IMG/VR virus record: IMGVR_UViG_3300034044_000040
Coordinates: 21,341-85,340 of that record
Origin: a virus
Reading direction: 5' to 3' (one strand)
Length of the DNA stretch: 64,000 nucleotides
A model generated the notes under the pieces. That model did not search any database and was not told the origin of the DNA. It saw nothing but the letters and a program-made list of their open reading frames with translations. Of this stretch, positions 397 through 63,918 are shown in pieces. Every line of letters begins with the position of its first letter. Position 1 is the stretch's first letter. Both the position numbers and the translations under genes were made by a program.

Positions 397-417
397 TTGC
401 AACTGGTTGCACAAAAC

Positions 418-612
418 ATGTCCTCACCCCGCGCCATCAAGAAAAAGGTCCAGATTAAAACTTACGTGGTTTTGCTCCGGAACAACATGGCGCGGGATGG
501 GGAACCAAACAGCAGCATCATCGCTGTAAAACTGACGCGGGCCGCAGCCGAACTGGTGGCGAACAGCATCGCAGGCACTTGGATCGAGCGTCACGTAGCA
601 ACAAAAAACTGA
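418..612 (+). CDS. Small hypothetical protein
   Basis: ORF between tail tube and chaperone; ATG at 418. Confidence 0.5.
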   Translation: MSSPRAIKKKVQIKTYVVLLRNNMARDGEPNSSIIAVKLTRAAAELVANSIAGTWIERHVATKN

Positions 613-656
613 TCCACCCACCCTACAAGCCAACTGGCAGCCAAGGAGTATATAAA

Positions 657-1073
657 ATGGCAATCAAGGCACTGAACCTTCACGACGTGAAGACCGTCAC
701 CCACCCGGATGACAAGAACGACCCCACGAAATGGGAGATTGCGGTGATCGACAGCCGCGTGCTTGGTATGATCCAAGACAAGGCGACCAAACTCACGGTT
801 GATGCGGACGATCCTGACGCAGACACCGGCGTGGAGGTCAGCCAGAATGAGGTGAACTTCCTGATTGTCCAATTCGGTCTCAAGGGGTGGTCGCATTTCA
901 TCGGTGAAAACGGCGATATCGTCTATGAGACAGAGGACAAGGTGCTGGGGTCGAAAAAATACAGCATCGCCAAATCTGACATTCTTTCGTCTATTCCGCA
1001 GGATGTGCTGCAATGGCTGGCCTCTGAGATCATGAAATTGAACACCTTGTCGGTCAAAGAGGGAAAGAAATAA
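657..1073 (+). CDS. Tail assembly chaperone (gpG-like)
   Basis: AAGGAG RBS before ATG 657; located before the tape measure gene; ends in a G GGA AAG slippery site. Confidence 0.8.
   Translation: MAIKALNLHDVKTVTHPDDKNDPTKWEIAVIDSRVLGMIQDKATKLTVDADDPDADTGVEVSQNEVNFLIVQFGLKGWSHFIGENGDIVYETEDKVLGSKKYSIAKSDILSSIPQDVLQWLASEIMKLNTLSVKEGKK
1061..1067 (+). other. Programmed -1 ribosomal frameshift site GGGAAAG
   Basis: In-phase G GGA AAG just before the stop at 1071-1073; the -1 frame is open to 1480. Confidence 0.85.
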
Positions 1074-1480: not shown

Positions 1481-1486
1481 TCCGTT

Positions 1487-4624: not shown

Positions 4625-4634
4625 GGAGATCACC

Positions 4635-5651: not shown

Positions 5652-5654
5652 CAG

Positions 5655-7729: not shown

Positions 7730-8275
7730 ATGACACACCATCCGCTGACACAATTGCCCAAGGCGATACTGCACGCGACGGACAAAACCGCGACAGGTTT
7801 GGAGGTGGTGGAGTGTGCCCGCACCTATATAGGGACGCCCTATGGGGATTATGGCCGCAAGAAAGGGTTCACCATGGATTGCATAGGGTTGCCCCTGACG
7901 GTTGGGCATGAGCTTGGCATATTTCACGGTGACTTTGACAGATATTCTCCGACCCCGAAACAGAGATACGCCATGGATGTGGCGGATGGGCACATGGGCG
8001 ATGTTATCTGGACCCGGCCAGGATGGCCTGATAAGCCGGACTGGTATGCAGACTTGCAACCCGTTGCAACGCAGGCTGGCGATGTGGGCCTTTTTTGGTT
8101 TTCAAACCGCGCGGAGCCACAGCATTTTGCGATATTCGGGGTACATCCCCTCACCGGTGGGCCAACGATGATACATGCGCATTCTCGGTATAAAAAATGC
8201 GTAGAGGCCACGATGGATGAATTTTGGGCACGGCGGTTGGTGCGCACTTACAGGTTACCAAACGTGAAAGGATGA
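7730..8275 (+). CDS. NlpC/P60 tail peptidase (RcGTA g14-like)
   Basis: ARTYIGTPY, DCIGL catalytic Cys, HFAI, MIHA. Confidence 0.9.
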   Translation: MTHHPLTQLPKAILHATDKTATGLEVVECARTYIGTPYGDYGRKKGFTMDCIGLPLTVGHELGIFHGDFDRYSPTPKQRYAMDVADGHMGDVIWTRPGWPDKPDWYADLQPVATQAGDVGLFWFSNRAEPQHFAIFGVHPLTGGPTMIHAHSRYKKCVEATMDEFWARRLVRTYRLPNVKG

Positions 8276-10775: not shown

Positions 10776-12209
10776 ATGTCAACCACCGCCCGCCTCGGCC
10801 TCGCACTTATGGCCACGTCAACGCTATCGAAAGAGACGGTGTTCAATGAGGCGGTGGCCACGCTGGACGCCCTCGTGCACCCGAAAGCGCTATCCGCGAC
10901 CATCGCATCCCCTCCGGGCACGCCGTCGCTGGGTGACGTCTATATCATACCTGTCGGAGCCACCGGGGCATGGGCGGGACATGACAACAAGATCGCGGTG
11001 TATACCACGGGGTGGAAATACCTTGATCCCATTTCCGGGTTTTTTATATGGGTGGCGGACACGGCGAAAACCTACAGATATGATGAAGTCACATTGGCGT
11101 GGGTCGAAAACGTGCTCACGGTATCCAATCTGACAGACCTCACGGATGTGGATGCTGGTGATCTTAGCACCGGGGCCTTACTGAGATATGATGCGACGGC
11201 GGGTAAGTATGCATTGCAACTGGTTGCACTCGACGACCTCAGCAACGTGTCAGCCGCTGCCCCCAATGACGGGCAGGTGCTGGCATGGGTCAGCGCGAAC
11301 GCCGCGTGGGAGGTATCTGATGTGCCCCCGATGACTGGTGCCGCTATCAAGGCAGCCTATGAGGGGGAAGCGAACACGAACGCCTTCACCGATGCTGAAA
11401 AGACGAAGCTGGCGGGGCTTGATGGATCGAAATACTTGGGCACCTATGTGAGCCTGACCGCCCTCAACGCTGCACAACCTGCACCGGCGATAGGGTCGTA
11501 TGCCCATGTTGATGCTGGAGCAGGCTCAGATGTGCAGCTGTATATCTGGGATAATGACGACGCCAAATTCGTTGTGTCAGCAGGTGGCGGCGGAACCATG
11601 ACAGGGGCTGCCATCAAAGTGGCCTATGAAGGGGAACCTGACACAAACGCCTTCACGGACGCAGAGAAAGCGAAGCTGGCAGGCGTGGAGGCGGGGGCCA
11701 CGGCGGACCAGACAGATCAGGAGATCGTGACCGCCTACAATGCAGTGGTGGCGCAGGTAACCGGCCCCGAGATTACGGCTGGCACGGCAACCACGGTGCG
11801 CAGGTTCAGCCCGAAAGATGTAACGGATATGGTGCTTGCACACGCGCCAGCAGGAGGCACACCCCCTCCGGCCCCCTATGACGTCAGGTTAGGGTTCACC
11901 GCCACACCAACCGCAGGGCAGGTGATTGATACGATAATGGTGGTTCGCGATATCAATTTTCCCGCAGATTTCTCAGGGTCACTTGGCACAATTGGTACGC
12001 TGCCCACGGCAAACATGATCCTGACGTTAAAGGCGGACGGTGTGGCCGTAGGCACCACCACAATAGACACGGCGGGGGTGTTCACGTTCGCGACGACGGG
12101 GGGAACAACACAGACTATCGCTACCGGAGCGATCCTCACGCTGGAAGCACCAGCCACCGCTGATGCGACAGCTGCGAATGCTGCGTTTACCCTCATGGGG
12201 ACAGTATAA
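10776..12209 (+). CDS. DUF2793-domain tail fibre / receptor-binding protein
   Basis: N-terminal NEAVATLDAL..PP..P..GDVYIIP.GATGAWAGHD..GW signature; internal repeats. Confidence 0.8.
   Translation: MSTTARLGLALMATSTLSKETVFNEAVATLDALVHPKALSATIASPPGTPSLGDVYIIPVGATGAWAGHDNKIAVYTTGWKYLDPISGFFIWVADTAKTYRYDEVTLAWVENVLTVSNLTDLTDVDAGDLSTGALLRYDATAGKYALQLVALDDLSNVSAAAPNDGQVLAWVSANAAWEVSDVPPMTGAAIKAAYEGEANTNAFTDAEKTKLAGLDGSKYLGTYVSLTALNAAQPAPAIGSYAHVDAGAGSDVQLYIWDNDDAKFVVSAGGGGTMTGAAIKVAYEGEPDTNAFTDAEKAKLAGVEAGATADQTDQEIVTAYNAVVAQVTGPEITAGTATTVRRFSPKDVTDMVLAHAPAGGTPPPAPYDVRLGFTATPTAGQVIDTIMVVRDINFPADFSGSLGTIGTLPTANMILTLKADGVAVGTTTIDTAGVFTFATTGGTTQTIATGAILTLEAPATADATAANAAFTLMGTV
11331..11684 (+). repeat. 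Two copies of a 29-aa fibre repeat MTGAAIKxAYEGExxTNAFTDAEKxKLAG (11331-11417, 11598-11684)
   Basis: Visible in translation; DNA copies diverged mainly at synonymous sites. Confidence 0.85.
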
Positions 12210-15528: not shown

Positions 15529-15641
15529 TTTGCAACCCGTTGCAACCCGCTGCACGGTATTTTAATACGGAAATTGATTATGCCCCGCCAAACGTGTAGG
15601 GTATCGACATAAACGAGGACCACCCACCGGAGGACCGCAAT

Positions 15642-17902: not shown

Positions 17903-17996
17903 TTTTTTTGTTGCAACCCGTTGCACAAGGTGGTAGGTATTAGGGGACATCATGTTCATATTTGCCGTTTTGCATGATGCTGGTTGAACACTCTAT

Positions 17997-21776: not shown

Positions 21777-22118
21777 TCCCGAAAACTTTTCGTTGCAACC
21801 CGTTGCATAATTCAAGACAGCCAAAGGGCACGACGGAAATGTACACAAGCTATGGGGAGTGCTGATAATGTGCTCCCCACATATGGTGTAAAGGGGAAAA
21901 TCTGATAAAATTTATACCGCTCACAAAATGATTGACGTATACCAAATTGTTGCACATAGTGGGCGACACCTGCCAGACATCCCGAACCGATACAGGGCAA
22001 AATAATTGGCAGGTATTCAACCTTAACAGAGCTGGGCGCGAACCCGTTCTGTAGCTAAAACGGCAGGATCACCCTGCATATGTATGAAGCACGGCCTTTC
22101 GCGGGCCATTGATAACGT

Positions 22119-23627
22119 ATGGGCACACCGATAATGAATAACACAGAGAGCGTCGTAATCAATTTTGATCCGATAGGGCCAACACGTGTTGGGGACAAAT
22201 TTGAAAGAGGGCTGTCGGGTGACAAGATAACACCCCTTGATCGCCAGAGCGTTGTGCAACATTTGAGCCGGGTGTGGAGAGCGCACCTCACACCCACAGA
22301 GGGATGGGTGATGTTGTATATCCTAGACAGATCAGTTGATTGGGGTAAACCCACATTTAAGGCGAGCCATGGCAACGTGATAAATGGTGCACCCGGATAT
22401 GCAGGCGTCGGCATGGGTAGATCAGCTTACCTCAGCGTGTTATCCTCTTTGGAGAAAAAAGGGGCCATTATCCGGAAGCCTTTGGCAAAATGCACAGAGA
22501 TCGGCATAAATTTTAAGTGGAACCCGGAGGATAAAACCATGTTGCTGCCCGTTCCAAAGCGCAAGCAGTCCGGAAAACAGGACGCCTCACCCGTCCGGAA
22601 AACCGGACTATACCCGTCCGGAAAACCGGACACAGAAGAAAGAGAGTTAAAGAAAGAAAGTACCCTTACCGGATCGCCTTCGGCTCACCGGGGTGGTTTT
22701 GAAAATTCTCTTTCCGGAAAAGACAAAAAACCAGAAATTTTGCCGGACGAAAATTGCAACCCGTTGCAGCGGGGCAAAGAGGCCACAGACACCATCCGGG
22801 ATCGGCTGACTACCATGCAATCTTCGATGACACGCAAAACAGTTGTGGCTGCGGAAGTCTCGAAAACAAAAAAGAAACCGAACGCCGCCGACATGGAGCG
22901 CGTGTTCGTGCTCGCAATGAAAGAAACTTTTCCAGACATCAACCACGTGCGGTGGGGCAAGGTTCAGAAGGCTAAGGTGAAACGTGCGATGGCTGCATAT
23001 TCTTTTGACAACACGATCACGCTTCCCGCTCTGATCGACTGGGGCGTCAGAAACTGGAAACCTCTGCTATCCGGACCCTTCAGTTTCATGACAAACGCCT
23101 GTGACGTGCCCTCGATAAATTATCTGCTGTCGGAGGGCGTGACCCGGCTTTTGGCCAGTGCATACGCGAGCAAATCCCTAAAGGCCCTCGCGAACGATTT
23201 TGAGGTGGACGAATTGACCCGCCTGAAGGCACGCGGCATGACTGAGGAAGAGGCCCTCGCACATATCGGCGAGGCCCGCGCGGCGCGCAGGATGCGTGAG
23301 GAGAACGAGAAAATAAAGCGGGATGCTGCAAATAAGCTGGCACAGGCTGCGGATAGAGAAGATCGCGCGGCGCGTCTTGAGGGTATCGGGGAAAAACTTC
23401 TGGAGGCTGGGGTGCCCGTCACTCCGGTTGCCGCGAAAAAACCGGGGCAGGTGTGGGGTGGTCAGGCCATACCGCATCCCGATAGTCCAGCGATGCGAGA
23501 AAAACGCAGACTTGCCCGTGCCTACACAGAGAGGGTTGAAACACCTGCACAAACAAGGACACCTCGCAAGTGGGAAGATGTGGTCGCATTGAGAAATGCT
23601 GCTCGGGGTACAAATCAAGATGACTGA
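22119..23627 (+). CDS. Putative replication initiator (N-terminal winged HTH, internal iterons)
   Basis: GMGRSAYLSVLSSLEKKGAI wHTH; internal direct repeats; upstream of loader and helicase. Confidence 0.6.
   Translation: MGTPIMNNTESVVINFDPIGPTRVGDKFERGLSGDKITPLDRQSVVQHLSRVWRAHLTPTEGWVMLYILDRSVDWGKPTFKASHGNVINGAPGYAGVGMGRSAYLSVLSSLEKKGAIIRKPLAKCTEIGINFKWNPEDKTMLLPVPKRKQSGKQDASPVRKTGLYPSGKPDTEERELKKESTLTGSPSAHRGGFENSLSGKDKKPEILPDENCNPLQRGKEATDTIRDRLTTMQSSMTRKTVVAAEVSKTKKKPNAADMERVFVLAMKETFPDINHVRWGKVQKAKVKRAMAAYSFDNTITLPALIDWGVRNWKPLLSGPFSFMTNACDVPSINYLLSEGVTRLLASAYASKSLKALANDFEVDELTRLKARGMTEEEALAHIGEARAARRMREENEKIKRDAANKLAQAADREDRAARLEGIGEKLLEAGVPVTPVAAKKPGQVWGGQAIPHPDSPAMREKRRLARAYTERVETPAQTRTPRKWEDVVALRNAARGTNQDD
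22568..22631 (+). repeat. Iteron-like direct repeats, candidate replication origin
   Basis: GTCCGGAAAACAGGAC (22568), ACCCGTCCGGAAAACCGGAC (22589 and 22612), followed by an A-rich tract. Confidence 0.65.
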
Positions 23628-28937: not shown

Positions 28938-28976
28938 GGGGCGTCTCTGTTTCTGTCCGGAGACGCCCCATTATTT
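28938..28976 (+). terminator. Terminator-like hairpin
   Basis: GGGGCGTCTC/GAGACGCCCC stem followed by attattt. Confidence 0.6.
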
Positions 28977-28993
28977 GCAACGGGTTGCACGTA

Positions 28994-36724: not shown

Positions 36725-37315
36725 ATGCAGATCAGAGATAGAGCCTCCCCGGCCCGCGCCATTTTTTTGGAGGGTGCAACCCGTTGCACGCATGTCACCA
36801 ATCCGCATCCCGTGTTAGGTATAGACGCTTCCGCCAGCAAAATAGGTTTTGCCGTTGCATGGGATGGGTACATCAAAACATGGCTGTACAAGCCGAAAGG
36901 AACTGGCGTGGTCAGAATTGATGAGCACTACAGGAACATCAAGGAAGTGGTTGATCTTTATGACATCCGCACGGCAGCGATAGAGGGATATTCCTTCGGG
37001 TCGCGCGCCAGTCAGGCGCACACCACGGGTGAATGTGGTGGGGCCGTGAAACTCGGCTTGCGGCACAAAGGGGTGCAGCTGATTTTGGTATCACCAAACA
37101 CCTTGAAAATGTATGTCACATCGAAGGGAAACAGCCCGAAGAACGCGATACCCCTTGGCCTCTATAAATTATGGGGGCTTGACATCACGCAGGAAGATGA
37201 GGCTGACGCCGCCGGGATCGCCATGCTCGGGGCCGCGTATTATCACGCTGACGCATTCACCCTTTTGAAATATCAGCAAAAAGCCATGAAAGGGGTCAAT
37301 CCGGTGAACGACTAG
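36725..37315 (+). CDS. RuvC-like Holliday junction resolvase
   Basis: LGIDAS, AIEGYSF, PNTLK.YVT.KGN..K, DEADA. Confidence 0.8.
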   Translation: MQIRDRASPARAIFLEGATRCTHVTNPHPVLGIDASASKIGFAVAWDGYIKTWLYKPKGTGVVRIDEHYRNIKEVVDLYDIRTAAIEGYSFGSRASQAHTTGECGGAVKLGLRHKGVQLILVSPNTLKMYVTSKGNSPKNAIPLGLYKLWGLDITQEDEADAAGIAMLGAAYYHADAFTLLKYQQKAMKGVNPVND

Positions 37316-37357
37316 CGAGGATATACAGTGCAGCGTGCAACCCGTTGCAATTTTCTC

Positions 37358-37385
37358 TTGCATATAATCGTGGTTGTGGTATTGT
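37358..37385 (+). promoter_or_regulatory. Conserved phage promoter, copy 4
   Basis: TTGCAT-ataatcgtggttgtgg-TATTGT. Confidence 0.8.
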
Positions 37386-37456: not shown

Positions 37457-38797
37457 ATGACATCTAACACGCAGAACATCAAAGTCGGAATGATCGCCAC
37501 GTTCGGTGGATATTCCGATCTGGAGGAAGGAATGGAAGCCATCCTTCCAGAGGGGCAGCGTATCGTCATCGCGGACATCAAACCAAACGGTGCCGGGTAC
37601 ACGGTCGTCGCCATCAACGAAGAGGGCCAGCGGCTGAACGCCGATGGTGAGGTATGGAAAGAGGGCGATGCTGTGCTTGGGGACACCCTTTTCCCCTCAG
37701 AAATTCTTGACATCGAAGACCCCACACCTACCCCGGCTGAAGCAGACACAACGGAAGCTGCCCCGGAAACTGAAGCCGCCGCACCTGCGGAAGTCTTCGA
37801 AGATGATTTCACCGCAGCCGCAGTCAAAAAAATGACCGGGCCTCAACTCGTGGACATCGCGAGCCGATATGGCGTTGCAGTCCCCGATGGGTTTGCAAAA
37901 ATGCTGGTCAAAAACAAGCGCGACGTGATCCTTGCATGGCTGGCGGAACAGGAAGCCAAAGAAGACGCAGACGAAACCGCCACCGATGAAGCGGAAACAC
38001 CTGAAACTGAAGCCCCAGATACTGAGGTGGTTTCTACCATGCCCGATATGGTGCCAGCCACCGCACCTGTCACCGCCGTGTCTGATATGGATCGGGTCAA
38101 CGAACTGACTGCGGAAAAGGATGCAGTGCAGGCCGTGAAAGACCTGATTTCTCAGGAAAACCGCATCCTCTATGATCAGGGGTGCTTGCTGACCTATATC
38201 AACGAAACCGGCATGTACAAATCATACGGCTTCGAAGGCAAGAAAGGGTTCGAAGATTTCTGCGAGAAATATCTCGACATCAAATATCGCAAGGCGCGGT
38301 ACCTGATCGACATTTTCCAGACGTTCAAACAGATCGGCATCAACGTGGCCAGTCTGGATGCAATCGGCTGGTCGAAAGCGGCTGTTTTGGCCCGTATCCC
38401 GGTTGATCAGCTGGAGGCAAACATCGAAAGCCTGCTGGCGCTGGCCCAGTCAGAAACCCGTGATGCGCTGATCGAGCACGTCAAGGAAAACTACGAGATT
38501 GCCACCCGCGCCGATACCGTGAAGGCTACCACCTTCCGGTTCAAGGTGTTGGAAGCTGATGCGGACGTGGTTACCGCTGCCCTCGATCACGCCAAGACCT
38601 TGGTGGAAGACGGCGACCTGAACAAAGCGTTTGTGCACATGTGCGGGGACTGGATGAACAACGCGGAGGGTACCGATCTTGATATGGATACCTTCTTTGA
38701 TCTGGCCATCGCTCGGTTCGGCGCGGACGCCCTCATGGTCAAACTGGACGCGCTTTCGGCGGAGCCTGCGGAAGAAACTCAGGCAGAGGCCGGATGA
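37457..38797 (+). CDS. Acidic multidomain protein with a DUF3102-like helical DNA-binding region
   Basis: G.LL..I...YKSYGF..FEDFCEKYLDIKYRKARYLI..F...IGWSKA..L; acidic linkers. Confidence 0.55.
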   Translation: MTSNTQNIKVGMIATFGGYSDLEEGMEAILPEGQRIVIADIKPNGAGYTVVAINEEGQRLNADGEVWKEGDAVLGDTLFPSEILDIEDPTPTPAEADTTEAAPETEAAAPAEVFEDDFTAAAVKKMTGPQLVDIASRYGVAVPDGFAKMLVKNKRDVILAWLAEQEAKEDADETATDEAETPETEAPDTEVVSTMPDMVPATAPVTAVSDMDRVNELTAEKDAVQAVKDLISQENRILYDQGCLLTYINETGMYKSYGFEGKKGFEDFCEKYLDIKYRKARYLIDIFQTFKQIGINVASLDAIGWSKAAVLARIPVDQLEANIESLLALAQSETRDALIEHVKENYEIATRADTVKATTFRFKVLEADADVVTAALDHAKTLVEDGDLNKAFVHMCGDWMNNAEGTDLDMDTFFDLAIARFGADALMVKLDALSAEPAEETQAEAG

Positions 38798-41740: not shown

Positions 41741-41772
41741 GTAAATTATTTGCAACCCGTTGCATTTTTTCC

Positions 41773-41800
41773 TTGCAAACAATCGTGGGTGTGGTATTCT
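41773..41800 (+). promoter_or_regulatory. Conserved phage promoter, copy 6
   Basis: TTGCAA-acaatcgtgggtgtgg-TATTCT. Confidence 0.82.
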
Positions 41801-44373: not shown

Positions 44374-45015
44374 ATGAGCGACACACAGAAAGATGACGAG
44401 GCACCATCTAAAAACAACGCCGAAACACCGCAAAACGAAGCCACGGAAAGCAAGGATGTGGCAGACGATCAAAGCACACCGGACGAAGTGCAACCCGTTG
44501 CAACGCAGGCTGGCGAAAAAGCTGGAAAATCCAAGGGCAAAGGCGGGCGCAAGACGAAGAAGTCAGCGAAAAAAGCGGATGCCGCCAACGATCCCATTGT
44601 CCTGTTGTTTGCAGGCCATGGGGCCAGTGATCTTGAGCGCATTGAAGATCGGGAATTCACTACACTGCGCGTCGGTCGCAAGTGGTATGACACCCTCATG
44701 GAAGCGAAAGCGTCAGGTGTGGGACCACTGATCATCAACGCGCATCGGACAGATGATGACCCTGACAAGCCAGATGCACCCAGCAAGGCCGGGGAACATG
44801 TCGGCGCTTTCGAAGTCATCGGTGTTGACCTCGTTCCTTACTACAGTCAGGCACTGGCAGTGTCGGCCTTCACGGAACACCTTTGCCTACTCGGGTCTTC
44901 CCGGTCGAAACTTGATGAGGTCATCACGGCCTTGTACACCACCGAGAAGATCGCCGCAGTCTCGGGTGATCCAGACGACGGCTTCACCATCATCAGCCTG
45001 AAACGGGTGGCCTAA
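44374..45015 (+). CDS. Hypothetical protein with disordered N-terminus, possibly ASCH/PUA-like
   Basis: AAGGA RBS; FTTLRVG motif. Confidence 0.55.
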   Translation: MSDTQKDDEAPSKNNAETPQNEATESKDVADDQSTPDEVQPVATQAGEKAGKSKGKGGRKTKKSAKKADAANDPIVLLFAGHGASDLERIEDREFTTLRVGRKWYDTLMEAKASGVGPLIINAHRTDDDPDKPDAPSKAGEHVGAFEVIGVDLVPYYSQALAVSAFTEHLCLLGSSRSKLDEVITALYTTEKIAAVSGDPDDGFTIISLKRVA

Positions 45016-47559: not shown

Positions 47560-47656
47560 TAAATAATAGAATATCTTTACACGCCGAGGAGGAGACTATG
47601 TGGTTGGCACGCCAAATACGTGCGATATAATGCAAGTGAAAAGAGGAGATCACTTG

Positions 47657-48421
47657 ATGGCTAAACGACAGGCTTCCAAACGGCAGAAACGCGATAATGC
47701 ACGGGATCGTGAAGACAGCTCCTACCGGCGAAAAAACCCAGCGCAGATCAGGCTACCAGCCTTGGAAGCCCAGACAGCCACCCAGAAAAAAATGATAAGC
47801 ATGATCACGACGAACTCGCAGACATTTGCTGTGGGGCCAGCTGGTACGGGAAAAACCTATATTGCTGCACGTAAGGCCGCAGACTTGTACGACCAAAAGC
47901 AGGTGCGTAAAATTGTGATATCACGCCCGAATACGCCCACCGGTCGCAGCTTGGGATTTTTCCCCGGCACTCTGGAAGAGAAAATCGCACCTTGGGCGGT
48001 CCCTGTCATTGAGGTGCTGGAAGCCTCGCTTGGAAAATCGCATGTTGAACACCTCTTGAAGACTGGCAAGATAGAGGTGGCACCCTTCGAGACCATGCGC
48101 GGGCGCACCTTTGATGACGCCTTCATCATATTGGATGAGGCCCAGAACACCACGCCGCATGAAATGAAAATGTTTCTCACCCGTGTAGGTGCCCGCAGCA
48201 CCTTGATCGTCAGCGGCGACGTGTCACAGTCCGACTTACAAGGCAACAGCCTTGATGGATTGACAATGGCATTGCAACTGGTTGCAAAATTTGACCTGCC
48301 CGTCGGCGTGGTGGAATTCACCACGGAGGATGTCGTGCGCTCAGACATATCCGCGCAGTGGGTTGTGGCGTTTTACAGGCATGAGGCAGCCAATGGGAGA
48401 GGGCTTGATCGGGTGGCATGA
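47657..48421 (+). CDS. phoH: PhoH-family ATPase
   Basis: GPAGTGKTY, ISRP, LGFFPG, MRGRTF, LDEAQN, GDVSQSDL, DVVRS. Confidence 0.95.
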   Translation: MAKRQASKRQKRDNARDREDSSYRRKNPAQIRLPALEAQTATQKKMISMITTNSQTFAVGPAGTGKTYIAARKAADLYDQKQVRKIVISRPNTPTGRSLGFFPGTLEEKIAPWAVPVIEVLEASLGKSHVEHLLKTGKIEVAPFETMRGRTFDDAFIILDEAQNTTPHEMKMFLTRVGARSTLIVSGDVSQSDLQGNSLDGLTMALQLVAKFDLPVGVVEFTTEDVVRSDISAQWVVAFYRHEAANGRGLDRVA

Positions 48422-50306: not shown

Positions 50307-50446
50307 GTGTCACTAACGTGCAACCCGTTGCAGTCGTTTTGTATGGACCTTCCCCTGCGCATGTGCTTGTATAGAAAAGCTGTTTCAACCAGCACTGGCG
50401 AATACACTTTCCCCTAATGAGCACAATTAACCTTTGGAGCCTCCAC

Positions 50447-54714: not shown

Positions 54715-54819
54715 GGATGATACACGCCTGCCCGGCATATTTTCACGCAGTACACTATGGACATTGCAACCCGTTGCAATTATGGTTCAGTAACAAGTGA
54801 AGCAACAGGCAGGCATCTC

Positions 54820-55458
54820 ATGCATATTGAGCTAGAGAAGCGGGCATTGGACGCGATTACTCCATACGCCCAAAACTCCAAACACCACGGCGAGGAAGAC
54901 GTCGCGCTGATCATGGCATCAATCGAACGGTTCGGGTTCAATGACCCAATAGCAGTCGATGAGGATGGGGTGATAATTGAGGGCCACGGTCGCTATGAAG
55001 CGGCCACAAACCTATCACTCGAACATGTCCCCGTTATAGTGTTGAGCGGTCTCACCGATGAGCAGAAGCGGATGTACCGCATAGCACACAACAAGATCGC
55101 ATTATCATCCACCTTCGATTTTGCAAAGTTGGCAGAAGCTCTAGGGCAGATCGCTGGCGACGACATAACGTACAACCACCTAGGGTTTTCCGACGCAGTT
55201 GCAGATAATTTGGTGAATGTGGTGTTCGGGGATGGCAGCCTGAAGGAACCATCCTTATCATCTGTTGAGCCGTTTGACGTAATTTGGGATACCAAGGAGC
55301 AACGGGACCGATGGCAGGGGTTCATGAAGCGGGTGCACGCAAATTTCCCAAATATGTCTGACGCGGAAGCACTCATCGAATTCATAGAGGAAAGCGGCAT
55401 ACTGAGCGGCATCCGGAACCTGTCCAATGAGGTAGAGGAGGTGACCCATGAGCAGTGA
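54820..55458 (+). CDS. ParB/Srx N-terminal domain protein 1
   Basis: PYAQNSKHH, SIERFGFNDPI, IIEGHGRYEAA, YRIAHNK. Confidence 0.85.
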   Translation: MHIELEKRALDAITPYAQNSKHHGEEDVALIMASIERFGFNDPIAVDEDGVIIEGHGRYEAATNLSLEHVPVIVLSGLTDEQKRMYRIAHNKIALSSTFDFAKLAEALGQIAGDDITYNHLGFSDAVADNLVNVVFGDGSLKEPSLSSVEPFDVIWDTKEQRDRWQGFMKRVHANFPNMSDAEALIEFIEESGILSGIRNLSNEVEEVTHEQ

Positions 55459-56092
55459 CACTCTTGAGGTGACAACCAGAAAAGTGGCGGACCTCATCAG
55501 GGACGAGGAAAACCTCAAGGTACATCCCGTGCTCCAAATTGATCAGCTTGTCGCATCAATCGAACGGTTCGGGTTCAATGATCCTGTGGGTATCGACGAG
55601 CAAAATAATGTGCTGGAAGGTCACGGTCGCCTCCTAGCGGCTGATAAGATTGGCCTCGATGAAGTGCCTGTCGTGGTTATATCCGGGTTGACCGAAGCAG
55701 AGAAGCGAGGGTACCGGATCGCGCACAATCAGACCACCATGAATACGGGGATGAACCGTGACGCGGTTCGGAATGAGTTTCAGGCACTGAACCTGAGCAG
55801 CGATGACTATATGAGCGTAGGTTACGCACAGGATGACGTACTGTTCCTATCGGATATGTTCGATGGGGACGCGAATTCAGACATGGATCATAACGGTCAC
55901 GAGCGTGATAATGTGAGTTCGTTCCTACCTCCGGTGGTGAGGACGTCTATCACGTTTGACAATGACGCGCAGTTTGACAAGTTTCAGGATTTCCAGATGG
56001 CGCTGAGATCGCGGTACCCGGAGGGTGCCACCATAGCGGATCGGTTAATGCTGTTTGTCGATGAATATGAGGGACAGCTGGATGGCCACTAA
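55448..56092 (+). CDS. ParB/Srx N-terminal domain protein 2 (tandem paralogue)
   Basis: SIERFGFNDPV, LEGHGRLLAA, GLTEAEKRGYRIAHNQ. Confidence 0.85.
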   Translation: MSSDTLEVTTRKVADLIRDEENLKVHPVLQIDQLVASIERFGFNDPVGIDEQNNVLEGHGRLLAADKIGLDEVPVVVISGLTEAEKRGYRIAHNQTTMNTGMNRDAVRNEFQALNLSSDDYMSVGYAQDDVLFLSDMFDGDANSDMDHNGHERDNVSSFLPPVVRTSITFDNDAQFDKFQDFQMALRSRYPEGATIADRLMLFVDEYEGQLDGH

Positions 56093-57254
56093 GGAAAATG
56101 TAGAATTTTTGGGCGTGAACGTCTATGAAGAGGCGAAACGGCGCATAAAATATTGCTACGCAAACTGGGATCACGTGTGGTTAAGTTTCAGCGGAGGCAA
56201 GGATAGCCTGTGCGTTCTATGGCTGATGCGCGAGGTGCTGGATGATATGGGATTGTCCCACGTCAAGGTTAATGCTTTTTTTCGTGACGAGGAAGTCATT
56301 CCAGACGATGTGATATCCTTCGTTCAAGGTTTCATAGAAAACCCTGATCTTTCATCGCGGTTCAACGTCGCGTATTTCGCGGTACCAATGGCCAGCCACA
56401 TATTCATGATGGGGGAACACTGGCCATATGTTCAGTGGGATAAATCGCGGGAGTGGTTGAGGGAGCCTCCGGAGTACGCCATACGCAAGCTGCATCCTGA
56501 AGATAAGCCCATGGATCAGCACGAAATGAACGGGCTGACCGCCGAGGTGTTGGGATTGAAGGGAAAAATTGCCATACTGAACGGCTTGCGTGCGGACGAA
56601 AGTTTGAACCGGTACCGATCCTGTGTGGCCAAGAAGGGACGATACAACTGGGTCATGGGGTCACCGGGGAAAGGTGAGAAAAATATCGCGTTCTGCAAGC
56701 CTATTTTCGACTGGGCGACTGGCGACTTGTTCAAGTATTTCAAAGAGAAAAACATCACGTATCCCTCAATATACGACACGCAGCTTTATTCCGGAGAGAG
56801 CCTGCGAGTGTCCACCCCCTTGCATGATCGCGCGTATCAATCGCTGGTTAAATTGCGCGTCACTCATCCTAAGTTCTATGAACAAATACTGCACATCTGG
56901 CCTGAAGTTGCCACGCATGAACGGTACTATTGTGCTGTGGATCGCTACGGGATCATTGATCGGTATCCGAAGTCGTGGGAGGGCATCATCCAATATATCG
57001 AGGATAATATTGACAGCCCCACGAACAAAGCAAGAGCCATGGAAGTGCTAAAAAATTGCAAGACCATGAAAGACAAGAACCGCAGACTGGGGCGATATGC
57101 TGATAAGGCGTTCGGCTTTCCATTGTTGCATGTGTTCAAGCAAATAGTGGCGGGGAGCTACATGAAGGGCATATCCACGGAACCTTTCCCTCCCCCGAGC
57201 TACATGGCGTATGAAGAAGCAGCTGAAAACCTTCGCGACGGCGGAAGAGATTAA
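56082..57254 (+). CDS. IbrA-like PAPS-reductase-family (PP-loop) protein
   Basis: NVYEEA..RI, SFSGGKDS, DEE, GLRADESLNR, PIFDW, IYD, RVS. Confidence 0.85.
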   Translation: MATKENVEFLGVNVYEEAKRRIKYCYANWDHVWLSFSGGKDSLCVLWLMREVLDDMGLSHVKVNAFFRDEEVIPDDVISFVQGFIENPDLSSRFNVAYFAVPMASHIFMMGEHWPYVQWDKSREWLREPPEYAIRKLHPEDKPMDQHEMNGLTAEVLGLKGKIAILNGLRADESLNRYRSCVAKKGRYNWVMGSPGKGEKNIAFCKPIFDWATGDLFKYFKEKNITYPSIYDTQLYSGESLRVSTPLHDRAYQSLVKLRVTHPKFYEQILHIWPEVATHERYYCAVDRYGIIDRYPKSWEGIIQYIEDNIDSPTNKARAMEVLKNCKTMKDKNRRLGRYADKAFGFPLLHVFKQIVAGSYMKGISTEPFPPPSYMAYEEAAENLRDGGRD

Positions 57255-57264
57255 GGAATACCAC

Positions 57265-57795
57265 ATGTTCACAGATTTTGATAAACAGCCGATCAACCGG
57301 GTACAGTGGGTGCCAGTTGATCAGCTGAATGCCAATGACTACAATCCTAATCACGTTTTGGCGCAGGAAATGCGTCTTCTGAAGCATTCGATGCTGGAGC
57401 AGGGGTGGATACAGCCGGTGCTGGTCTCAAAAGCTGACGACGAGGATACCTACACCATCATCGACGGGTTTCATCGCGCCACCTTGGTGAAGACTGACAA
57501 GCACGTCTTTAATATGACGAACGGGTTCGTGCCTTGCGTGATCATGGACATGACAGTGCCTGAACGTAAAATGCTCACCGTCCGCATCAATCGGGCGAAA
57601 GGCTCACATAGCGCTGTGCGTATGCATGAGATCGTTGCCGGTCTGGTATCCGAACATGGCCTTCCTGTAGACGCGATCATGCGCGGAATTGGGGCCACGA
57701 GACATGAGGTCGATACTCTTCTGACGGAGAATTTGTTCAAAAAATTCGATGTGGACAACACACCGTACTCGGAAGCGTGGAAACCGAAGGACTAA
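57265..57795 (+). CDS. IbrB-like ParB-domain protein
   Basis: VQWVP...ANDYNPNHV..EM.LL..S, IIDGFHR, TVRINRAKGSH, YSEAW; AAGGA RBS. Confidence 0.85.
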   Translation: MFTDFDKQPINRVQWVPVDQLNANDYNPNHVLAQEMRLLKHSMLEQGWIQPVLVSKADDEDTYTIIDGFHRATLVKTDKHVFNMTNGFVPCVIMDMTVPERKMLTVRINRAKGSHSAVRMHEIVAGLVSEHGLPVDAIMRGIGATRHEVDTLLTENLFKKFDVDNTPYSEAWKPKD

Positions 57796-57896: not shown

Positions 57897-57979
57897 GATA
57901 AGGTAAGAAAGGGCGCACGACGAATTGCAACCAGTTGCAACTAGATGTGGGTATACTATGTCAGAAGAGGGGTAACAGC

Positions 57980-59324: not shown

Positions 59325-59412
59325 TCCGCGCCGCCAGCCTATAAATTTGCAACCCGTTGCAACTACACCACCCGCCCTCGTGGCACCGTAAGCAGCCATC
59401 CCGGAGTAGATA

Positions 59413-59844: not shown

Positions 59845-59881
59845 AGCAGATCGGCGCGCCATACATCGTGAGGAGAGAACA

Positions 59882-60234: not shown

Positions 60235-60407
60235 CAGAACGGGGTGCATTTCATCCTGATCCCGGCAGGTTGTCATAATTCGTCATTTAACAAACATGCC
60301 CCATGGGCCTGCAACGGGTTGCAAACTAAAGCGTGTCCGACTAATATGCTACACGAGTGGCCCCGTACCAAGACACGGTGGCTGTGCAATTTTAGTAGAG
60401 CAGCAGC

Positions 60408-61307
60408 ATGGGGGCACCTCGGATGTCCGATCCTAGCGGCAGCACGCCCCCGAACCAGCGGGGAGGGCAGCCAGAAATTTCACAGGTGGTGGCTGAAAGG
60501 TTGGACCGCATCATTGCGGACCCAGACGGCGTGGTCAATCTAAACGAGGTTTACGACGGCCCAGCGGGGGCACTTCCACAGGAGGTGGCTGATCGCGTAA
60601 GATCAATCAACACATATAGCTCGGGGTACACGTGGCCTTTCATCAAGCAGGCCCTTCGATACATGGTGTTCTCTGGGGTACCACATGATCAGATAGCAAA
60701 AAAATTCAATGTGACGTGGCGCACCTGCCACCGTTGGATCACCCGGATGCAGAAGGAATGGGATGGGGACGTCCTGAACTTCAGCCCCCGTGCTCAGTTC
60801 GCCAAAAGTCTGCAACTCAAACAAATGGTAATCGAGCAGCTTCTACAGCAGGCGGCGGCACCCGGAAACACGGTCAGAGATAAGGTCCATGTTCTGACGC
60901 AGGTATCCCGCATCGACAATGACATCGCTGTGCTCATCAACATGGCCGGGGGATGGGCGGATCAGCCTCTATGCCAGCAGCAGTTACAATCCGCGAAAAC
61001 ACGGGACACCATCGAAGAAAGGTCAGAGGTTGAAACCATCGGGGACATGATGAAGAGTTTCATGCGGGGCGGCATGGAGGATGCTGAGATCATCGACGAT
61101 CCGGAAGACGAGAGAGGGGATCAAGAAACCCAAGCAGATGACCCAGAACCTGCCAGTCCAGAACCTGCTCGCGCAGTTGACCACACGTCAGAGAAAGCAC
61201 CTGAAGTTAGGGAACGTCGCGCCCCGACTGACATGATCCGAAACAGAGTGCGCCGGGTGACGAGCAGACCGGATGCATCATCCACAGACGACACGGATAA
61301 TCACTGA
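60408..61307 (+). CDS. Putative terminase small subunit (HTH)
   Basis: GVPHDQIAKKFNVTWRTCHRWI HTH; coupled to the terminase large subunit gene. Confidence 0.65.
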   Translation: MGAPRMSDPSGSTPPNQRGGQPEISQVVAERLDRIIADPDGVVNLNEVYDGPAGALPQEVADRVRSINTYSSGYTWPFIKQALRYMVFSGVPHDQIAKKFNVTWRTCHRWITRMQKEWDGDVLNFSPRAQFAKSLQLKQMVIEQLLQQAAAPGNTVRDKVHVLTQVSRIDNDIAVLINMAGGWADQPLCQQQLQSAKTRDTIEERSEVETIGDMMKSFMRGGMEDAEIIDDPEDERGDQETQADDPEPASPEPARAVDHTSEKAPEVRERRAPTDMIRNRVRRVTSRPDASSTDDTDNH

Positions 61308-63313
61308 TGTACACGCCCCCACAGGATACCTTGGAGGAACAGCGCACCGCTCGGGATCGCGATATATGGCTCAGCGAGCAGAAGCAGCGTATGGAGCACA
61401 TCTACGCCAGCGCCCTTGCACGGGGGCACAAACGGGAAGGTGAGATATTTCGGTATGCAACGGAGCAGCTGATCCTGCACGACAACCAAATACCGTATGA
61501 AATGTTGTCCCGCATGAACAAGCAGCCGGTGACCATTGACGAGTTTGTGCAAAGCGACGAATTTCTCGGAGACTTAATGGATGTCTGGCCAATGCTGATG
61601 CGTGACCTGCGGCTGATGAACCCGGATGTGTTCGTGGGTGAACCCCCTTGTCATGAGGCATTGTTGGGTGGCGCGACGGGTACGGGTAAAACACACCTCA
61701 GTCAGATCACGAACATGTTCCAGCTGTATGGGTTCACCTGCTTCAACGAGGTACAGCGGATGTACCGGCTGGCAGCCAAGACCCCCATCGTATTCATGCT
61801 TCAATCCGTCAGCCCGACCATCACGAAGCGGGTTATATACAAGCCATTGCGCGACACCTTCACGGCAATGCCATATTTCCAGAAGAACATCACCTATGAC
61901 AGGTACAATGAGAGCACCCTGCTCATAGAGGGTGGCCTTGTGGTTGCTCCTATGGCGGCGAGCGTGCAATCTCTGGTAGGTCAGGCCATCCCCGGTGGCA
62001 TCCTCGACGAGGTGAACTTCATGTCAGTCGTGGAAAACTCCAAACAGGTGGCAGGGCCGCAGGGACTTGGTGGGTATTACAATCAGGCGGAAGTGGTATA
62101 CACGAACATTTCTCGCAGGCGTAAGCGCTCATTCCTGACGCGGGGATACAGCTTAGGTACCCTGTGCGTGGTGTCATCCACCAGATATAATGGTGACTTT
62201 CTCGACAAGCGCATTTCTGAGGTGGATGAGTTTGGGGAGAAAAACATCGTCACCCTGCGCAGGAAACAGTATGAGGTGGCACCGCAGGAACGGTATTCCG
62301 GTGATACCTTCACCTATATGATCTCATCCCCAGACACCCCCGGCAGGGTGATTGAGGCCGACGAGGTGGCAGGGGTGCATTACCCTGAAGGTGCCCGCCT
62401 TGAACAGGTTCCAATCGAACTGATAAATGACTTCAGGCGTGACCCGGAGGCAGCACAGCGCGACTATATGGGCATCGCAACTGATGCGATCACCCCCTTC
62501 ATCAGAAAGCGCCAGAAGATCAATGATGCTGTGAGCAGGGGAGCCGCCCGTGATCTGTTGCCCCTCATAGAGAGCGATCAGGTGGATTTGGCAGAAGACG
62601 GAATGCCAACATTCATACCGGAGAACTTCCCGAGAACGCGGGCACGCAGGAACAAGAGCCGGTGGGTGCATATCGACTTGAGCAGAGTGAATGACAGATG
62701 TGGCATCGCCATGCTGGCATTGGAGGGGTTCGTCAACAAAGCGATGGATGGCCCGGACGGTCTCACTGAAATACTGCCAAAATTCACCGTGGAGCTTGCG
62801 GTCGGCATCAAACCGTCAGTCGTGCGCGAGATCAACATCGCCGAGGTGCGGGCATGGGTGCTCCAGCTGGCAAGGGATTACGGCCTCAATATCGAGGGCA
62901 TCAGCTTTGATGGGTTTGACAGCCGAGAAACCATACAGGTGCTCAGGAACTCAGGTATGCGCGCCGGGACAGTGAGTATGGATCGGGACGTCACGCCGTA
63001 CCACACGCTCAGGGATGCATTGTACGAGGATCGTCTTGACATTCAGCCAGATATTGATCTTCTACTCACAGAGTTGAGAACCATCGAATACTACAAGGAG
63101 AAGAACAAAATTGACCACCCGCCCAACGGTACAAAGGACGTATCTGACTGCGTTGCCGGGGCCATAGCATCTGCCATGAAATCACGGGTGGTCAGAAACG
63201 GCATGGAGATCGTAAGTGGTGATCATCCTGAAGATGGAAGCACACAGCCTCCACGTTTCCGGGTTCGGAGAGAGCGCCACCGTATAGAGAGAAATCGGGA
63301 GAGACCCAGATGA
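61307..63313 (+). CDS. terL: Terminase large subunit
   Basis: GGATGTGKT, ILDEVNF, VSS, HIDLS...D, SFDGF, KIDHP..GTKDVSD nuclease motifs. Confidence 0.88.
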   Translation: MYTPPQDTLEEQRTARDRDIWLSEQKQRMEHIYASALARGHKREGEIFRYATEQLILHDNQIPYEMLSRMNKQPVTIDEFVQSDEFLGDLMDVWPMLMRDLRLMNPDVFVGEPPCHEALLGGATGTGKTHLSQITNMFQLYGFTCFNEVQRMYRLAAKTPIVFMLQSVSPTITKRVIYKPLRDTFTAMPYFQKNITYDRYNESTLLIEGGLVVAPMAASVQSLVGQAIPGGILDEVNFMSVVENSKQVAGPQGLGGYYNQAEVVYTNISRRRKRSFLTRGYSLGTLCVVSSTRYNGDFLDKRISEVDEFGEKNIVTLRRKQYEVAPQERYSGDTFTYMISSPDTPGRVIEADEVAGVHYPEGARLEQVPIELINDFRRDPEAAQRDYMGIATDAITPFIRKRQKINDAVSRGAARDLLPLIESDQVDLAEDGMPTFIPENFPRTRARRNKSRWVHIDLSRVNDRCGIAMLALEGFVNKAMDGPDGLTEILPKFTVELAVGIKPSVVREINIAEVRAWVLQLARDYGLNIEGISFDGFDSRETIQVLRNSGMRAGTVSMDRDVTPYHTLRDALYEDRLDIQPDIDLLLTELRTIEYYKEKNKIDHPPNGTKDVSDCVAGAIASAMKSRVVRNGMEIVSGDHPEDGSTQPPRFRVRRERHRIERNRERPR

Positions 63314-63918
63314 ACGTATTGCCGAACTTTATCAGAGCACCCGCCAGACGCATCAGACAGCGTATACTTCGAGCTTGGTATTCGGTGCAGAAATGGTGGT
63401 CATGTTTCATCGGGCTGCACTGCATAGAAGTCACTGAGGGTCGCGGGTTCACCCATATCAAATGCACGCGGTGTGATGCCTCAATCATGGCCACATGGGA
63501 CGTCCACACAGAAAGTGGCCCCACACCCGAGACAGTCTCTGGAAGTGACACGGTAGCGGATGCGGGTGGTAAACCATTGCAACTGGTTGCAAATGATCCT
63601 GCTTTGGATGCAGAGGGGCATCTGTTGTTGCCCGAAGATGTGACCGGGTTCACGGTGGTGTGCATGTTTTTCTACACCCCAACTGAGCAACTCAATCACG
63701 CGCTGGTGTATGCCCCTGCATATGACGCAGAACACGCGCGTATGGCAGCAGAGCAGACCCTCATGAGTTACATGGGTACGATTGGTTATGAGGTGCAGCA
63801 TCTTGATGTATGGGCCATCACCATATTCGAGGGCGAAGTGGACCCGGTGTGGGATGCAGGGCAGGAGGGATCAGAAGATCAACCATCCGCTGAAAATTCA
63901 GACGATCCCGACGCATAA
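63310..63918 (+). CDS. Hypothetical protein
   Basis: ATGA overlap with terL. Confidence 0.55.
   Translation: MNVLPNFIRAPARRIRQRILRAWYSVQKWWSCFIGLHCIEVTEGRGFTHIKCTRCDASIMATWDVHTESGPTPETVSGSDTVADAGGKPLQLVANDPALDAEGHLLLPEDVTGFTVVCMFFYTPTEQLNHALVYAPAYDAEHARMAAEQTLMSYMGTIGYEVQHLDVWAITIFEGEVDPVWDAGQEGSEDQPSAENSDDPDA

Follow-up and report, generated by a model that had tools for sequence, protein, structure and literature searches.

Why would a phage carry one short palindrome throughout its genome, inside genes as well as between them, and what would recognise it there? The question is raised by a stretch of viral DNA of 64,000 nucleotides (nt), here called the window, which comprises bases 21341–85340 of the 85,340-bp IMG/VR virus record IMGVR_UViG_3300034044_000040 and contains exactly 20 matches to TGCAAC-NN-GTTGCA (TGCAACNNGTTGCA), referred to below as the box. 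Judged from sequence comparisons, it is about an even call that the boxes are operator-like sites, arrayed across the whole genome, for a dimeric protein that the phage encodes and that recognises double-stranded DNA. The leading candidate for this binder, proposed with rather less than even confidence, is a protein of 446 amino acids (aa) encoded on the + strand at 37457–38797.

An earlier note on the window, made from its sequence, had listed 20 copies of the box, and an exact search recovered all of them at the listed starts; none was found in 100 dinucleotide-preserving shuffles (mean 0.00), which places the array far above chance. The whole record holds 29 boxes, or one per ~3 kb. On the + strand the two central bases of the 20 window boxes are CC in 12, TG in four, GG in three and CA in one, and the restriction of the centre to CC/GG or CA/TG that had been noticed before is thus obeyed by every copy. 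Gaps between neighbouring boxes run from 561 to 7657 bases, in agreement with the 0.6–7.7 kb first given. Across the whole genome the box is preceded by T in 19 of 29 cases and followed by A in 18 of 29; an extension to 16 bp is therefore frequent, as had been said, and not fixed. With regard to genes, seven window boxes lie outside any open reading frame (ORF) of at least 45 aa, seven lie within the first ~100 nt of a long ORF or inside an ORF of 46–71 aa and are probably upstream of the real start, and six are clearly gene-internal. The earlier tally of 13 intergenic and seven in-gene copies is accordingly revised to 14 that are intergenic or at gene starts and six that are internal, with the mixed placement itself upheld; the boxes are enriched between genes.

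The box is by no means peculiar to this phage. By polymerase similarity, its closest cultured relatives are the Rhizobium phages L338C, RHph_I4 and P11VFA (43%), followed by Aeromonas phage HJ05 (39%), Agrobacterium phage JP1 (37%) and the Rhodobacter RcF-cluster and Pseudomonas Samunavirus phages (35% each). The exact box, or a close variant with the general core TGCAA-N4-TTGCA, is present in 14 further phage-like genomes, each with 9–48 exact copies. Searching IMG/VR for the CC form brought up several large contigs that match more than once, and four related IMG/VR records hold 48, 28, 23 and 37 exact boxes at a G+C content of 50–62% and with only 0.4–17 kb of ~68–72% nucleotide similarity to this phage (G000 denotes below the whole record of this phage, and G001–G004 are labels of related genomes). 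Exact C..G boxes number 47 in L338C, which also has 12 copies with a 1-nt centre, and 16 in HJ05; about two thirds of the 47 L338C boxes lie between annotated genes in the RefSeq table, often 1–10 nt after a stop codon. There are no exact C..G boxes in RcDurkin, JP1 or Pseudomonas phage SM1, and a de novo count of all palindromes with 6-nt arms gave each of these phages a variant of its own: TGCAAT-CG-ATTGCA in RcDurkin (23 copies; 29 with the general core), TGCAAA-NN-TTTGCA in JP1 (33 copies) and TGCAA(G/A)-CG-(C/T)TTGCA in SM1 (30 copies). The general core occurs 31 times in DLP5, 15 times in RHph_Y1_11, and nine times exactly and 17 times with one mismatch in RcZahn. In the Vibrio phages the core is asymmetric in most sites and the arrays consist mostly of one-mismatch copies, with three exact and 23 such copies in SIO-2 and none and 13 in VHS1, where shuffles give 2–4 (~4 for SIO-2 and ~2 for VHS1). 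Finally, plasmid p7 of Rhizobium bangladeshense PLR8-1a (NZ_CP071625.1; 109,431 bp, circular) has 42 boxes. Taken together, these counts make the box a conserved clade signature with lineage-specific inner bases. The motif is not described in the papers found by a literature search that left supplements aside: the paper on the RcF cluster (PMC8601537; supplementary genome maps outside the search) has no occurrence of "palindrom", "motif" or "inverted", and the available text of the DLP3 paper (PMC7326821; supplements likewise outside) has no occurrence of "palindrom".

The distribution across hosts bears on whether a host protein is the reader of the box. All known hosts of the clade are Proteobacteria, and a conserved proteobacterial protein, such as a nucleoid protein or a global regulator, might have been recruited by the phage; the half-site TTGCAA resembles a -35 hexamer, and the JP1 form presumably resembles LacI/PurR-type operators. 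LacI/GalR-type operators are 14-bp palindromes with a central CG that are bound by a LacI-family protein; a CG centre is found in the JP1, RcDurkin and SM1 forms, and the centre in this phage is CC, GG, CA or TG. Phages of closely related hosts differ at the sixth base (TGCAAC in Rhizobium phage L338C, TGCAAA in Agrobacterium phage JP1), and the same form is common to phages of very different hosts, the phages with the core infecting Rhizobium, Agrobacterium, Rhodobacter, Aeromonas, Pseudomonas, Stenotrophomonas and Vibrio. In a scan of bacterial genomes with the CC form, which matched at least 120 stretches, the box was single in 79 and double in one of the 80 matches listed. A host reader is therefore very improbable, and the spread over phages of hosts from seven genera, together with the almost always single copies among the bacterial matches listed, supports the view that this is not a host regulator box; the earlier note had not recognised it as a known alphaproteobacterial one.

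In seven of ten genomes the boxes are spaced more evenly than random placement would give: the inter-site gaps have a coefficient of variation (CV) of 0.53–0.72 versus ~0.95–1.0 for random placement (P ≤ 0.02), and the excess evenness in those seven persists (P ≤ 0.023) when the random positions preserve how many sites each genome has between and within genes. In G003, HJ05 and RcDurkin the spacing is indistinguishable from random. The "lattice" of the earlier note is therefore a real but loose regularity and not a period.

What kind of molecule is read at these sites is indicated by their symmetry. The arm sequences are invariant and do not covary. Among the 28 G/A-type sites of SM1, the two half-sites are of different type in 21, G/G in seven and A/A in none, and the mixed sites occur in both coding-strand orientations (10 versus 11). 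As the half-sites differ in either orientation, an RNA hairpin would carry an A-C mismatch at 11 of the SM1 sites. Intergenic centres show no orientation bias (38 CC to 26 GG, p = 0.17); in genes CC exceeds GG by 33 to 13 (p = 0.0045), so that the coding-strand excess of CC is confined to in-gene sites, where CCC or CCG encodes proline. From these features we infer that the box is a symmetric double-stranded DNA target for a dimer, and the dimeric protein proposed at the outset is supported, by inference, by the invariant arms, the unbiased intergenic orientation and the mixed SM1 half-sites that face either way.

The same observations weigh on the possibility that the boxes act as RNA hairpins in polycistronic transcripts, in the manner of the Cluster K start-associated sequences, and serve as processing, stability or translation signals. 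Genes on one strand mean that every box is transcribed, and several boxes stand 2–25 nt before start codons or ribosome-binding sites. The hairpin of the box alone is weak, though (-4.1 kcal/mol, z 0.31; 122 of 200 shuffles are no less stable); with 10-nt flanks, four sites gave -4.1 to -9.4 kcal/mol and z scores of 0.31 to -2.57, and in the two of the four that fold better the gain is due solely to pairing of the flanks. Some boxes are moreover found within genes or ahead of promoters, and Rfam has no match in the window. An intrinsic terminator or structured RNA was likewise not found, the box stem giving no stable hairpin (-4.1 kcal/mol) and no Rfam family. The weak fold, the SM1 mismatches, the lack of covariation and the lack of an Rfam family together rule out the hairpin reading for practical purposes, and it is given next to no credence here.

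Selection appears to act on the DNA rather than on the protein, as had been proposed. For two internal boxes with orthologous genes, the box falls in a non-conserved stretch of the protein, and the orthologues have a box elsewhere or none at all; in-gene copies that sit in variable stretches, with displaced or absent boxes in orthologues, point to selection at the DNA level. Five of the six internal boxes are read as [LV]Q[PL]VA in one frame and the sixth as CNPLQ in another. A claim that all three frames are used stands for these two; the third, ATRC, is found only at 54765, at the extreme 5' end of the longest ORF of a ParB_N protein, where it is probably untranslated.

A further property of the array is its geometry relative to promoters. 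Matches were sought under a strict rule of the E. coli sigma-70 type and under a looser one. Under the strict rule, a promoter-like match lies within ~70 nt downstream on the coding strand for 47 of 321 boxes in ten genomes, compared with four of 321 on the mirror side. Under the looser rule 36 boxes were matched, and in 25 of them the gap to the -35 hexamer is 7–12 nt, with a mode of 8–9, which puts the centre of the box near -50. In the window, the boxes at 37336–37349 and 41751–41764 (both with centre CC) each stand 8 nt before a promoter of the same sigma-70-like type on the + strand, TTGCAT-N16-TATTGT at 37358–37385, which precedes the gene for the 446-aa protein, and TTGCAA-N16-TATTCT at 41773–41800; a third promoter of this kind stands downstream of a box that lies beyond the window, at genome position 143. 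The spacer AATCGTGG(T/G)TGTG(G/T)TATT (window 37364–37385) recurs almost identically in HJ05 near 52659, despite a polymerase identity of 39%. One conserved promoter class (TTGMCA-AAGGA...) is represented 28 times in L338C, always on the + strand; 14 of these promoters have a box at a gap of 7–12 nt and 14 have none, and their shared spacer (TTGMCA AAGGATYG...) suggests a second recognition element. No conserved flank emerged when sites were pooled: 227 of them from seven genomes have no information outside positions -1 to +14, and the idea that the box simply belongs to a single fixed promoter is rejected. The two elements are thus independent modules that keep a fixed geometry where they adjoin.

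By eye, a TTGCAA half-site followed at 16–17 nt by a putative -10 hexamer can also be read at three other boxes. At 15531–15544 (centre CC), which is 3 nt past an ORF end at 15528 and 98 nt before an ORF at 15642, the right half plus A is followed after 17 nt by TAATAC. At 57926–57939 (centre CA) the same hexamer is followed after 16 nt by TATGTC, and at 60310–60323 (centre GG) after 17 nt by TAATAT; the latter box lies 85 nt before an ORF at 60408 that has a weak HTH_23 match and precedes the large terminase gene.

If a phage protein reads the box, its gene may be expected among those that the array-bearing genomes have in common. ORF products were clustered from ten genomes, to which five more were added, and 13 families occur in all 14 genomes that include the replication region: the portal, protease, major capsid protein, large terminase, AAA+ ATPase, DnaB, polymerase, primase, helicase, RecA, exonuclease, a 393-aa protein and the 446-aa protein. 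The AAA+ protein is Cdc48/VCP-like and was ruled out as the binder. The 393-aa protein (30509–31690), which is named by no library, has a Cys-rich motif C-x6-8-CPLC and an acidic C-terminal tip DD(D/N)IPF as in bacterial single-strand DNA-binding protein (SSB); it is probably the single-strand DNA-binding protein of the phage and, being SSB-like, was also ruled out. With these two assigned, the 446-aa protein is the sole universal family outside the enzymes and structural proteins. In nine of nine genomes a box lies no more than 150 nt ahead of the start of its gene, which is true of no other gene, and in each of the nine a sigma-70-like promoter follows that box. The same arrangement of box and promoter, with a gap of 8 nt, recurs in DLP5, a genome outside these gene-position counts, and in RcZahn; in p7 a box lies 108 nt upstream of the gene, and RHph_Y1_11 has a one-mismatch copy there.

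In the 446-aa protein an acidic linker joins a small N-terminal domain to a conserved C-terminal domain of ~245 aa, in which the stretch GFxxF...YRKARYLIxIF...IGWSKA may be read as helix-turn-helix-like. The homologues of HJ05, RcDurkin and SM1 have Lys/Ala/Pro-rich tails that resemble histone H1, and that of HJ05 has the small N-terminal domain in three copies. Apart from scattered single matches, the family has no Pfam match at E ≤ 10 (eight members) or E ≤ 0.1 (42 members); the single homologues that do match hit SAP, HC2/histone-H1-like or AT-hook entries. There is no NCBIfam match and no match among PDB sequences (phmmer, two profiles), and an hhalign comparison of the C-terminal domain with ParB-C gave a probability of 0.1, i.e., the two are unrelated. 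Leads from the ESM Atlas (DUF3102, DUF1016/ParB HTH and Plasmid_parti_N) were all below 0.9, with structure TM ≤ 0.51, and are not counted as evidence. In G002:C1:57214-57963, on the minus strand of this complete relative, the search reported one in-frame TGA within a match to the family.

The family is large, with 2,466 cluster representatives at E ≤ 0.001. A blind test was made on 57 viral loci picked solely because they encode a member, with sites counted as the core within one mismatch. Among the new loci of at least 10 kb, 28 of 43 have three or more sites (2.45 per 10 kb), compared with two of 29 controls (0.55 per 10 kb). Other family loci have variant palindromes, namely TGAAAT-NN-ATTTCA in up to seven copies, TGCAGA in four, TCCAAT in three and TGACAT in three. 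The family is absent from four of four control viral records and found in four of five positive records, the fifth being a fragment that lacks the replication region. Among the candidate genes named in the earlier note, co-occurrence with the motif is seen for the gene at 37457, present in all 14 genomes with a replication region, and is broken for the ParB_N genes, which were not detected in SIO-2 and VHS1.

Several points weigh against an operator-like array read by the 446-aa protein. Only ~15% of the boxes adjoin a recognisable promoter, and half of the L338C class promoters are boxless, so that control of transcription cannot explain most sites. The promoter rule follows an E. coli consensus, and the gene calls are crude longest ORFs. 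SIO-2 and VHS1 have no box upstream of the 446-aa gene. The helix-turn-helix is an alignment reading only, since Pfam, NCBIfam and PDB sequences gave no match. Some family loci (L350–L355 and L379) are arrayless, and the co-occurrence of the array with the 446-aa protein is inseparable from that of the whole conserved replication and recombination module. Furthermore, the YRKA-YLI helix is near-invariant across loci whose boxes differ (TGCAAC, TGCAAT, TGAAAT and TGCAGA), and JP1, RcDurkin and SM1 have a divergent helix yet the same TGCAA core.

The surroundings of the gene also suit a different role for the boxes, in which they would be replication or recombination sites, bound by an origin-binding initiator and serving as many points of initiation, priming or recombination entry. 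The 446-aa gene lies in the replication and recombination module beside the exonuclease and RuvC genes, and the order exonuclease, RuvC, 446-aa protein is kept in SIO-2, VHS1, DLP5, RcZahn, RHph_Y1_11, the window and p7. The phage encodes DnaB, primase, polymerase, an SSB-like protein and RecA and has no recognised initiator, and even spacing and independence of orientation would suit such a function. Known origins, however, have clusters of sites beside an AT-rich stretch; here no such clusters are seen and the sites are single, one overlapping pair aside. The fixed distance from box to -35 hexamer is not expected of origins, and we know of no precedent for some 30 evenly spaced origins in a phage. 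This role is considered quite unlikely. The overlapping pair is at genome positions 2593–2616, outside the window, where two boxes share 4 nt and thereby form three consecutive half-sites; a further TGCAAC half-site follows 7 nt downstream, in what is the sole box cluster in the genome.

Among the candidate binders raised by the earlier note were the products of three ParB-domain genes. In such a scheme the boxes would be loading sites like parS or the operators (OB) of KorB, from which a CTP-dependent sliding clamp with a ParB domain would spread, as KorB does, to silence promoters, partition an episomal prophage, or both. The cluster at 54757–57795 on the + strand encodes three ParB_N proteins (54757–55458, 55448–56092 and 57211–57795) together with a PAPS-reductase-like protein (56055–57254). 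PHROGs labels the ParB_N proteins of the cluster ParB-like, and PF02195 matches the product of 57211–57795 with 30.1 bits (cut-off 26.3) and that of 54757–55458 with 22.7 bits, which is below the cut-off. ParB-C aligns to Noc past the N-domain (residues 30–164 with 29–158 of the Noc chain, E 0.0013), and in seven of ten genomes a box lies between 275 nt upstream and 8 nt past the start of the ParB-A gene. A spacing of 2–3 kb would be compatible with the ~1.5 kb sliding range given for KorB in the available text (PMC11790492), and the DLP5 and DLP3 authors credit ParB-domain proteins with phagemid maintenance in what is available of their papers (PMC5834331; PMC7326821).

The evidence nevertheless runs mostly the other way. 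The NCBIfam ParB/Noc matches are N-terminal only, ending at profile positions 82–99 of 186–255 and falling far below the cut-offs, and the C-terminal halves of ParB-A and ParB-B are not conserved among genomes with identical boxes. In G004 the ParB_N domain is part of a 536-aa protein with a weak methyltransferase match (its 542-aa homologue in G001 matches ParB_N only), and a PAPS-reductase-like protein accompanies ParB_N in G000, G002, G003 and L338C. ParA was sought with PF13614 (AAA_31) as the sole model, which found none in G000, G001, G002, p7 or DLP5 and matched in 14 of 14 control genomes. SIO-2 and VHS1 have arrays of 26 and 13 sites at up to one mismatch (shuffles ~4 and ~2), and neither BLASTP using the full set of family members nor a search with PF02195 detected ParB_N in these two phages. 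With N-terminal matches only, variable C-terminal halves, enzyme partners, no ParA, and arrays in phages that lack a detectable ParB_N, the three proteins are weakened as rival candidates for the binder, and a ParB-type clamp on the boxes is unlikely.

The methyltransferase-like and PAPS-reductase-like partners of ParB_N point towards DNA modification, and the cluster at 54757–57795 may be a module for that purpose and not for partition. The PAPS-reductase-like protein at 56055–57254 has a faint DndC-like match. One could then suppose that the boxes are the positions at which such enzymes modify or nick the DNA, given the ParB_N and PAPS-reductase-like genes here and, in relatives, ParB_N together with a methyltransferase match that is weak. 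The DNA of DLP5 is reported to be heavily modified: just four of 36 restriction enzymes cut it, and it resisted 32 (PMC5834331). Sets of modification enzymes differ among genomes with the same box and are absent from SIO-2 and VHS1, however, and a palindrome nicked on both strands would leave the DNA broken. A palindromic target of 14 bp is, moreover, unusually long for a modification enzyme. Modification or nicking at the boxes is thus a far-fetched explanation.

The lifestyle of the clade may give a reason for which genome-wide sites are kept. DLP5 is temperate and replicates as a phagemid (PMC5834331), and the available text of the DLP3 paper attributes lysogeny to ParB-domain proteins (PMC7326821). 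Plasmid p7 was deposited as a non-mobilizable circular plasmid of 109 kb; it has genes for the large terminase of the clade, for RuvC, for ribonucleotide reductase and for the 446-aa family, and it is an episomal phage of the clade. No tyrosine integrase was found in any of the five genomes searched. The phagemid state of DLP5, plasmid p7 and the lack of integrases in that search show that members of the clade can persist as episomes, a state in which genome-wide silencing and stable inheritance are needed.

IMG/VR classes the record as one with direct terminal repeats, and an exact 31-bp repeat was found; the CheckV completeness is 78, and long ORFs are nearly all on the + strand. Its genes identify it as a siphovirus-type phage with its own replication and recombination module: PHROGs, Pfam and NCBIfam name a tape-measure protein and tail proteins, DnaB, a family-A DNA polymerase, a primase-like protein, an SF2 helicase, RecA and RuvC, as well as a Cdc48-like AAA+ ATPase, a ribonucleotide reductase, the three ParB_N proteins and the PAPS-reductase-like protein. 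A 668-aa protein at 61307–63313 has no PHROG match and is taken as the large terminase because it clusters with the annotated large terminase of L338C.

Among the boxes that lie between genes or at gene starts, that at 398–411 (centre TG) is 2 nt past the stop of an ORF ending at 396, with an ATG at 418; that at 17912–17925 (CC) is 10 nt past an ORF end at 17902 and directly after a T run; and that at 21794–21807 (CC) is 18 nt past an ORF end at 21776. The box at 28976–28989 (GG) follows a G+C-rich inverted repeat and ATTATT and precedes an in-frame ATG of the primase-like ORF at 28994, and the box at 31836–31849 (GG) is between an ORF end at 31690 and an in-frame ATG of the helicase ORF at 31852. 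At 36775–36788 (CC) the box lies between the end of the exonuclease-family ORF at 36722 and an in-frame GTG of RuvC at 36812, where the Pfam RuvC match begins at residue 45 of the longest ORF. The box at 50319–50332 (CC) is 63 nt past the ORF that ends at 50256, with the ribonucleotide reductase gene lying 85 nt downstream at 50417, that at 54765–54778 (CC) is at the 5' end of the longest ORF of ParB_N protein A (54757–55458), and that at 59348–59361 (CC) is 24 nt past an ORF end at 59324 and 52 nt before an ORF at 59413.

The six internal boxes are at 8055–8068 (CC, read as LQPVA in ORF 7730–8275), 11215–11228 (TG, LQLVA in ORF 10776–12209), 22755–22768 (CC, CNPLQ in ORF 22119–23627, in a stretch that is unalignable among orthologues), 44489–44502 (CC, VQPVA in ORF 44374–45015), 48273–48286 (TG, LQLVA in ORF 47600–48421, where orthologues differ) and 63578–63591 (TG, LQLVA in ORF 63310–63918). 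The boxes at 8055 and 44489 have in common an identical 28-nt stretch (8055–8082 and 44489–44516) that encodes QPVATQAG in two otherwise unrelated proteins (181 and 213 aa), which could be due to chance or to gene conversion between boxes.

Dispersed sites of several kinds are known from other replicons. The stoperators of Cluster A mycobacteriophages such as L5 are asymmetric and oriented with transcription, and the protein that binds them is the immunity repressor of a temperate phage that integrates. Like the boxes, they amount to two to three dozen short sites in short intergenic gaps, there bound by one silencing protein; unlike them, the boxes have perfect palindromic arms and an unbiased intergenic orientation, and about one third lie in genes. 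The plasmid-prophage N15 has four dispersed inverted-repeat centromere sites, bound by SopB of a canonical SopA/SopB pair. These too are inverted repeats scattered in a genome, and they have a dual role in partition and gene control, but here there are 29 sites, and no ParA-type ATPase was found.

The nearest described phenomenon is the dyad repeat of the Cluster O mycobacteriophages, a likeness of kind and not of family. According to the available text of Cresawn et al. (2015; PMC4351075), these 17-bp repeats, TGTTCGG-N3-CCGAACA, are present in more than 30 copies, about one third of them in genes; their function is unknown, and a dimeric regulator has been suggested. As far as that text goes, one palindrome is in both cases dispersed through a siphovirus genome, with many copies intergenic and no meaningful orientation, and the copy number and placement here are of the same type (29 copies in the genome; 14 of 20 intergenic or at gene starts, six of 20 internal). 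In contrast to the 7-3-7 architecture of Cluster O, whose hosts are Actinobacteria, the box is 6-2-6. The Cluster O array is, again in the available text (PMC4351075), confined to one cluster of close relatives, whereas the core described here is kept across divergent groups with a G+C content of 45–62% and hosts of two proteobacterial classes, with measurably even spacing and a fixed geometry to sigma-70-type promoters. What the present analysis contributes on the box is its geometry relative to promoters, the grounds for a double-stranded DNA target, an analysis of how in-gene sites are read as codons, a broader set of variants, an episomal relative (p7), arguments against ParB and a named candidate for the binder.

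In terms of mechanism, the best analogy may be KorB and its operators OB on the IncP plasmid RK2 (McLean et al., 2025; PMC11790492). As portrayed in the available text, KorB is a ParB-family CTPase with a helix-turn-helix that works with KorA and IncC. The likeness is that a palindrome is dispersed on a mobile replicon with some copies beside promoters and others far from them, that silencing over long range is plausible, and that relatives of this phage live as plasmids. Unlike KorB, the phage has no ParA that was found, its ParB_N proteins have no clear ParB-type DNA-binding domain beyond the partial alignment of ParB-C to Noc, and arrays are present in phages that lack ParB_N.

An operator-like array read by the 446-aa protein could work as follows. 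At promoter-linked boxes, the protein bound near -50 would modulate initiation by the host RNA polymerase, most likely as repression or temporal shut-off, its own gene included. Boxes that are distant from promoters or inside genes would keep the protein distributed every 2–3 kb, and these distributed sites might act as roadblocks, as bridging points or as anchor points that silence or organise the phage chromosome, possibly in an episomal carrier state such as that of its relatives. A bolder proposal, offered only tentatively and with doubts that clearly exceed our confidence, is that this is a new system for chromosome silencing or organisation, in which dimers of the 446-aa family on evenly placed palindromes keep an episome of 80–110 kb quiet or compartmentalised in the absence of integrase or ParA, and that, as part of the same tentative proposal, it is functionally similar to KorB or to stoperators while being evolutionarily unrelated to either.

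The function of dispersed phage palindromes has been an open question since the Cluster O repeats, and L338C, DLP5 and HJ05 with their hosts would, if the operator-array reading holds, provide a tractable cultured model in which it can be addressed. Several phages of the clade are under study as candidates for biocontrol or therapy, and some persist as plasmids. The box is also a cheap sequence marker with which members of the clade may be recognised in metagenomes and among the "plasmids" of bacterial assemblies. If the boxes are indeed an operator-like array read by the 446-aa protein, one DNA word and one unannotated protein family would explain how the whole genome is controlled or organised in a large and widespread clade of siphoviruses with genomes of 80–110 kb.

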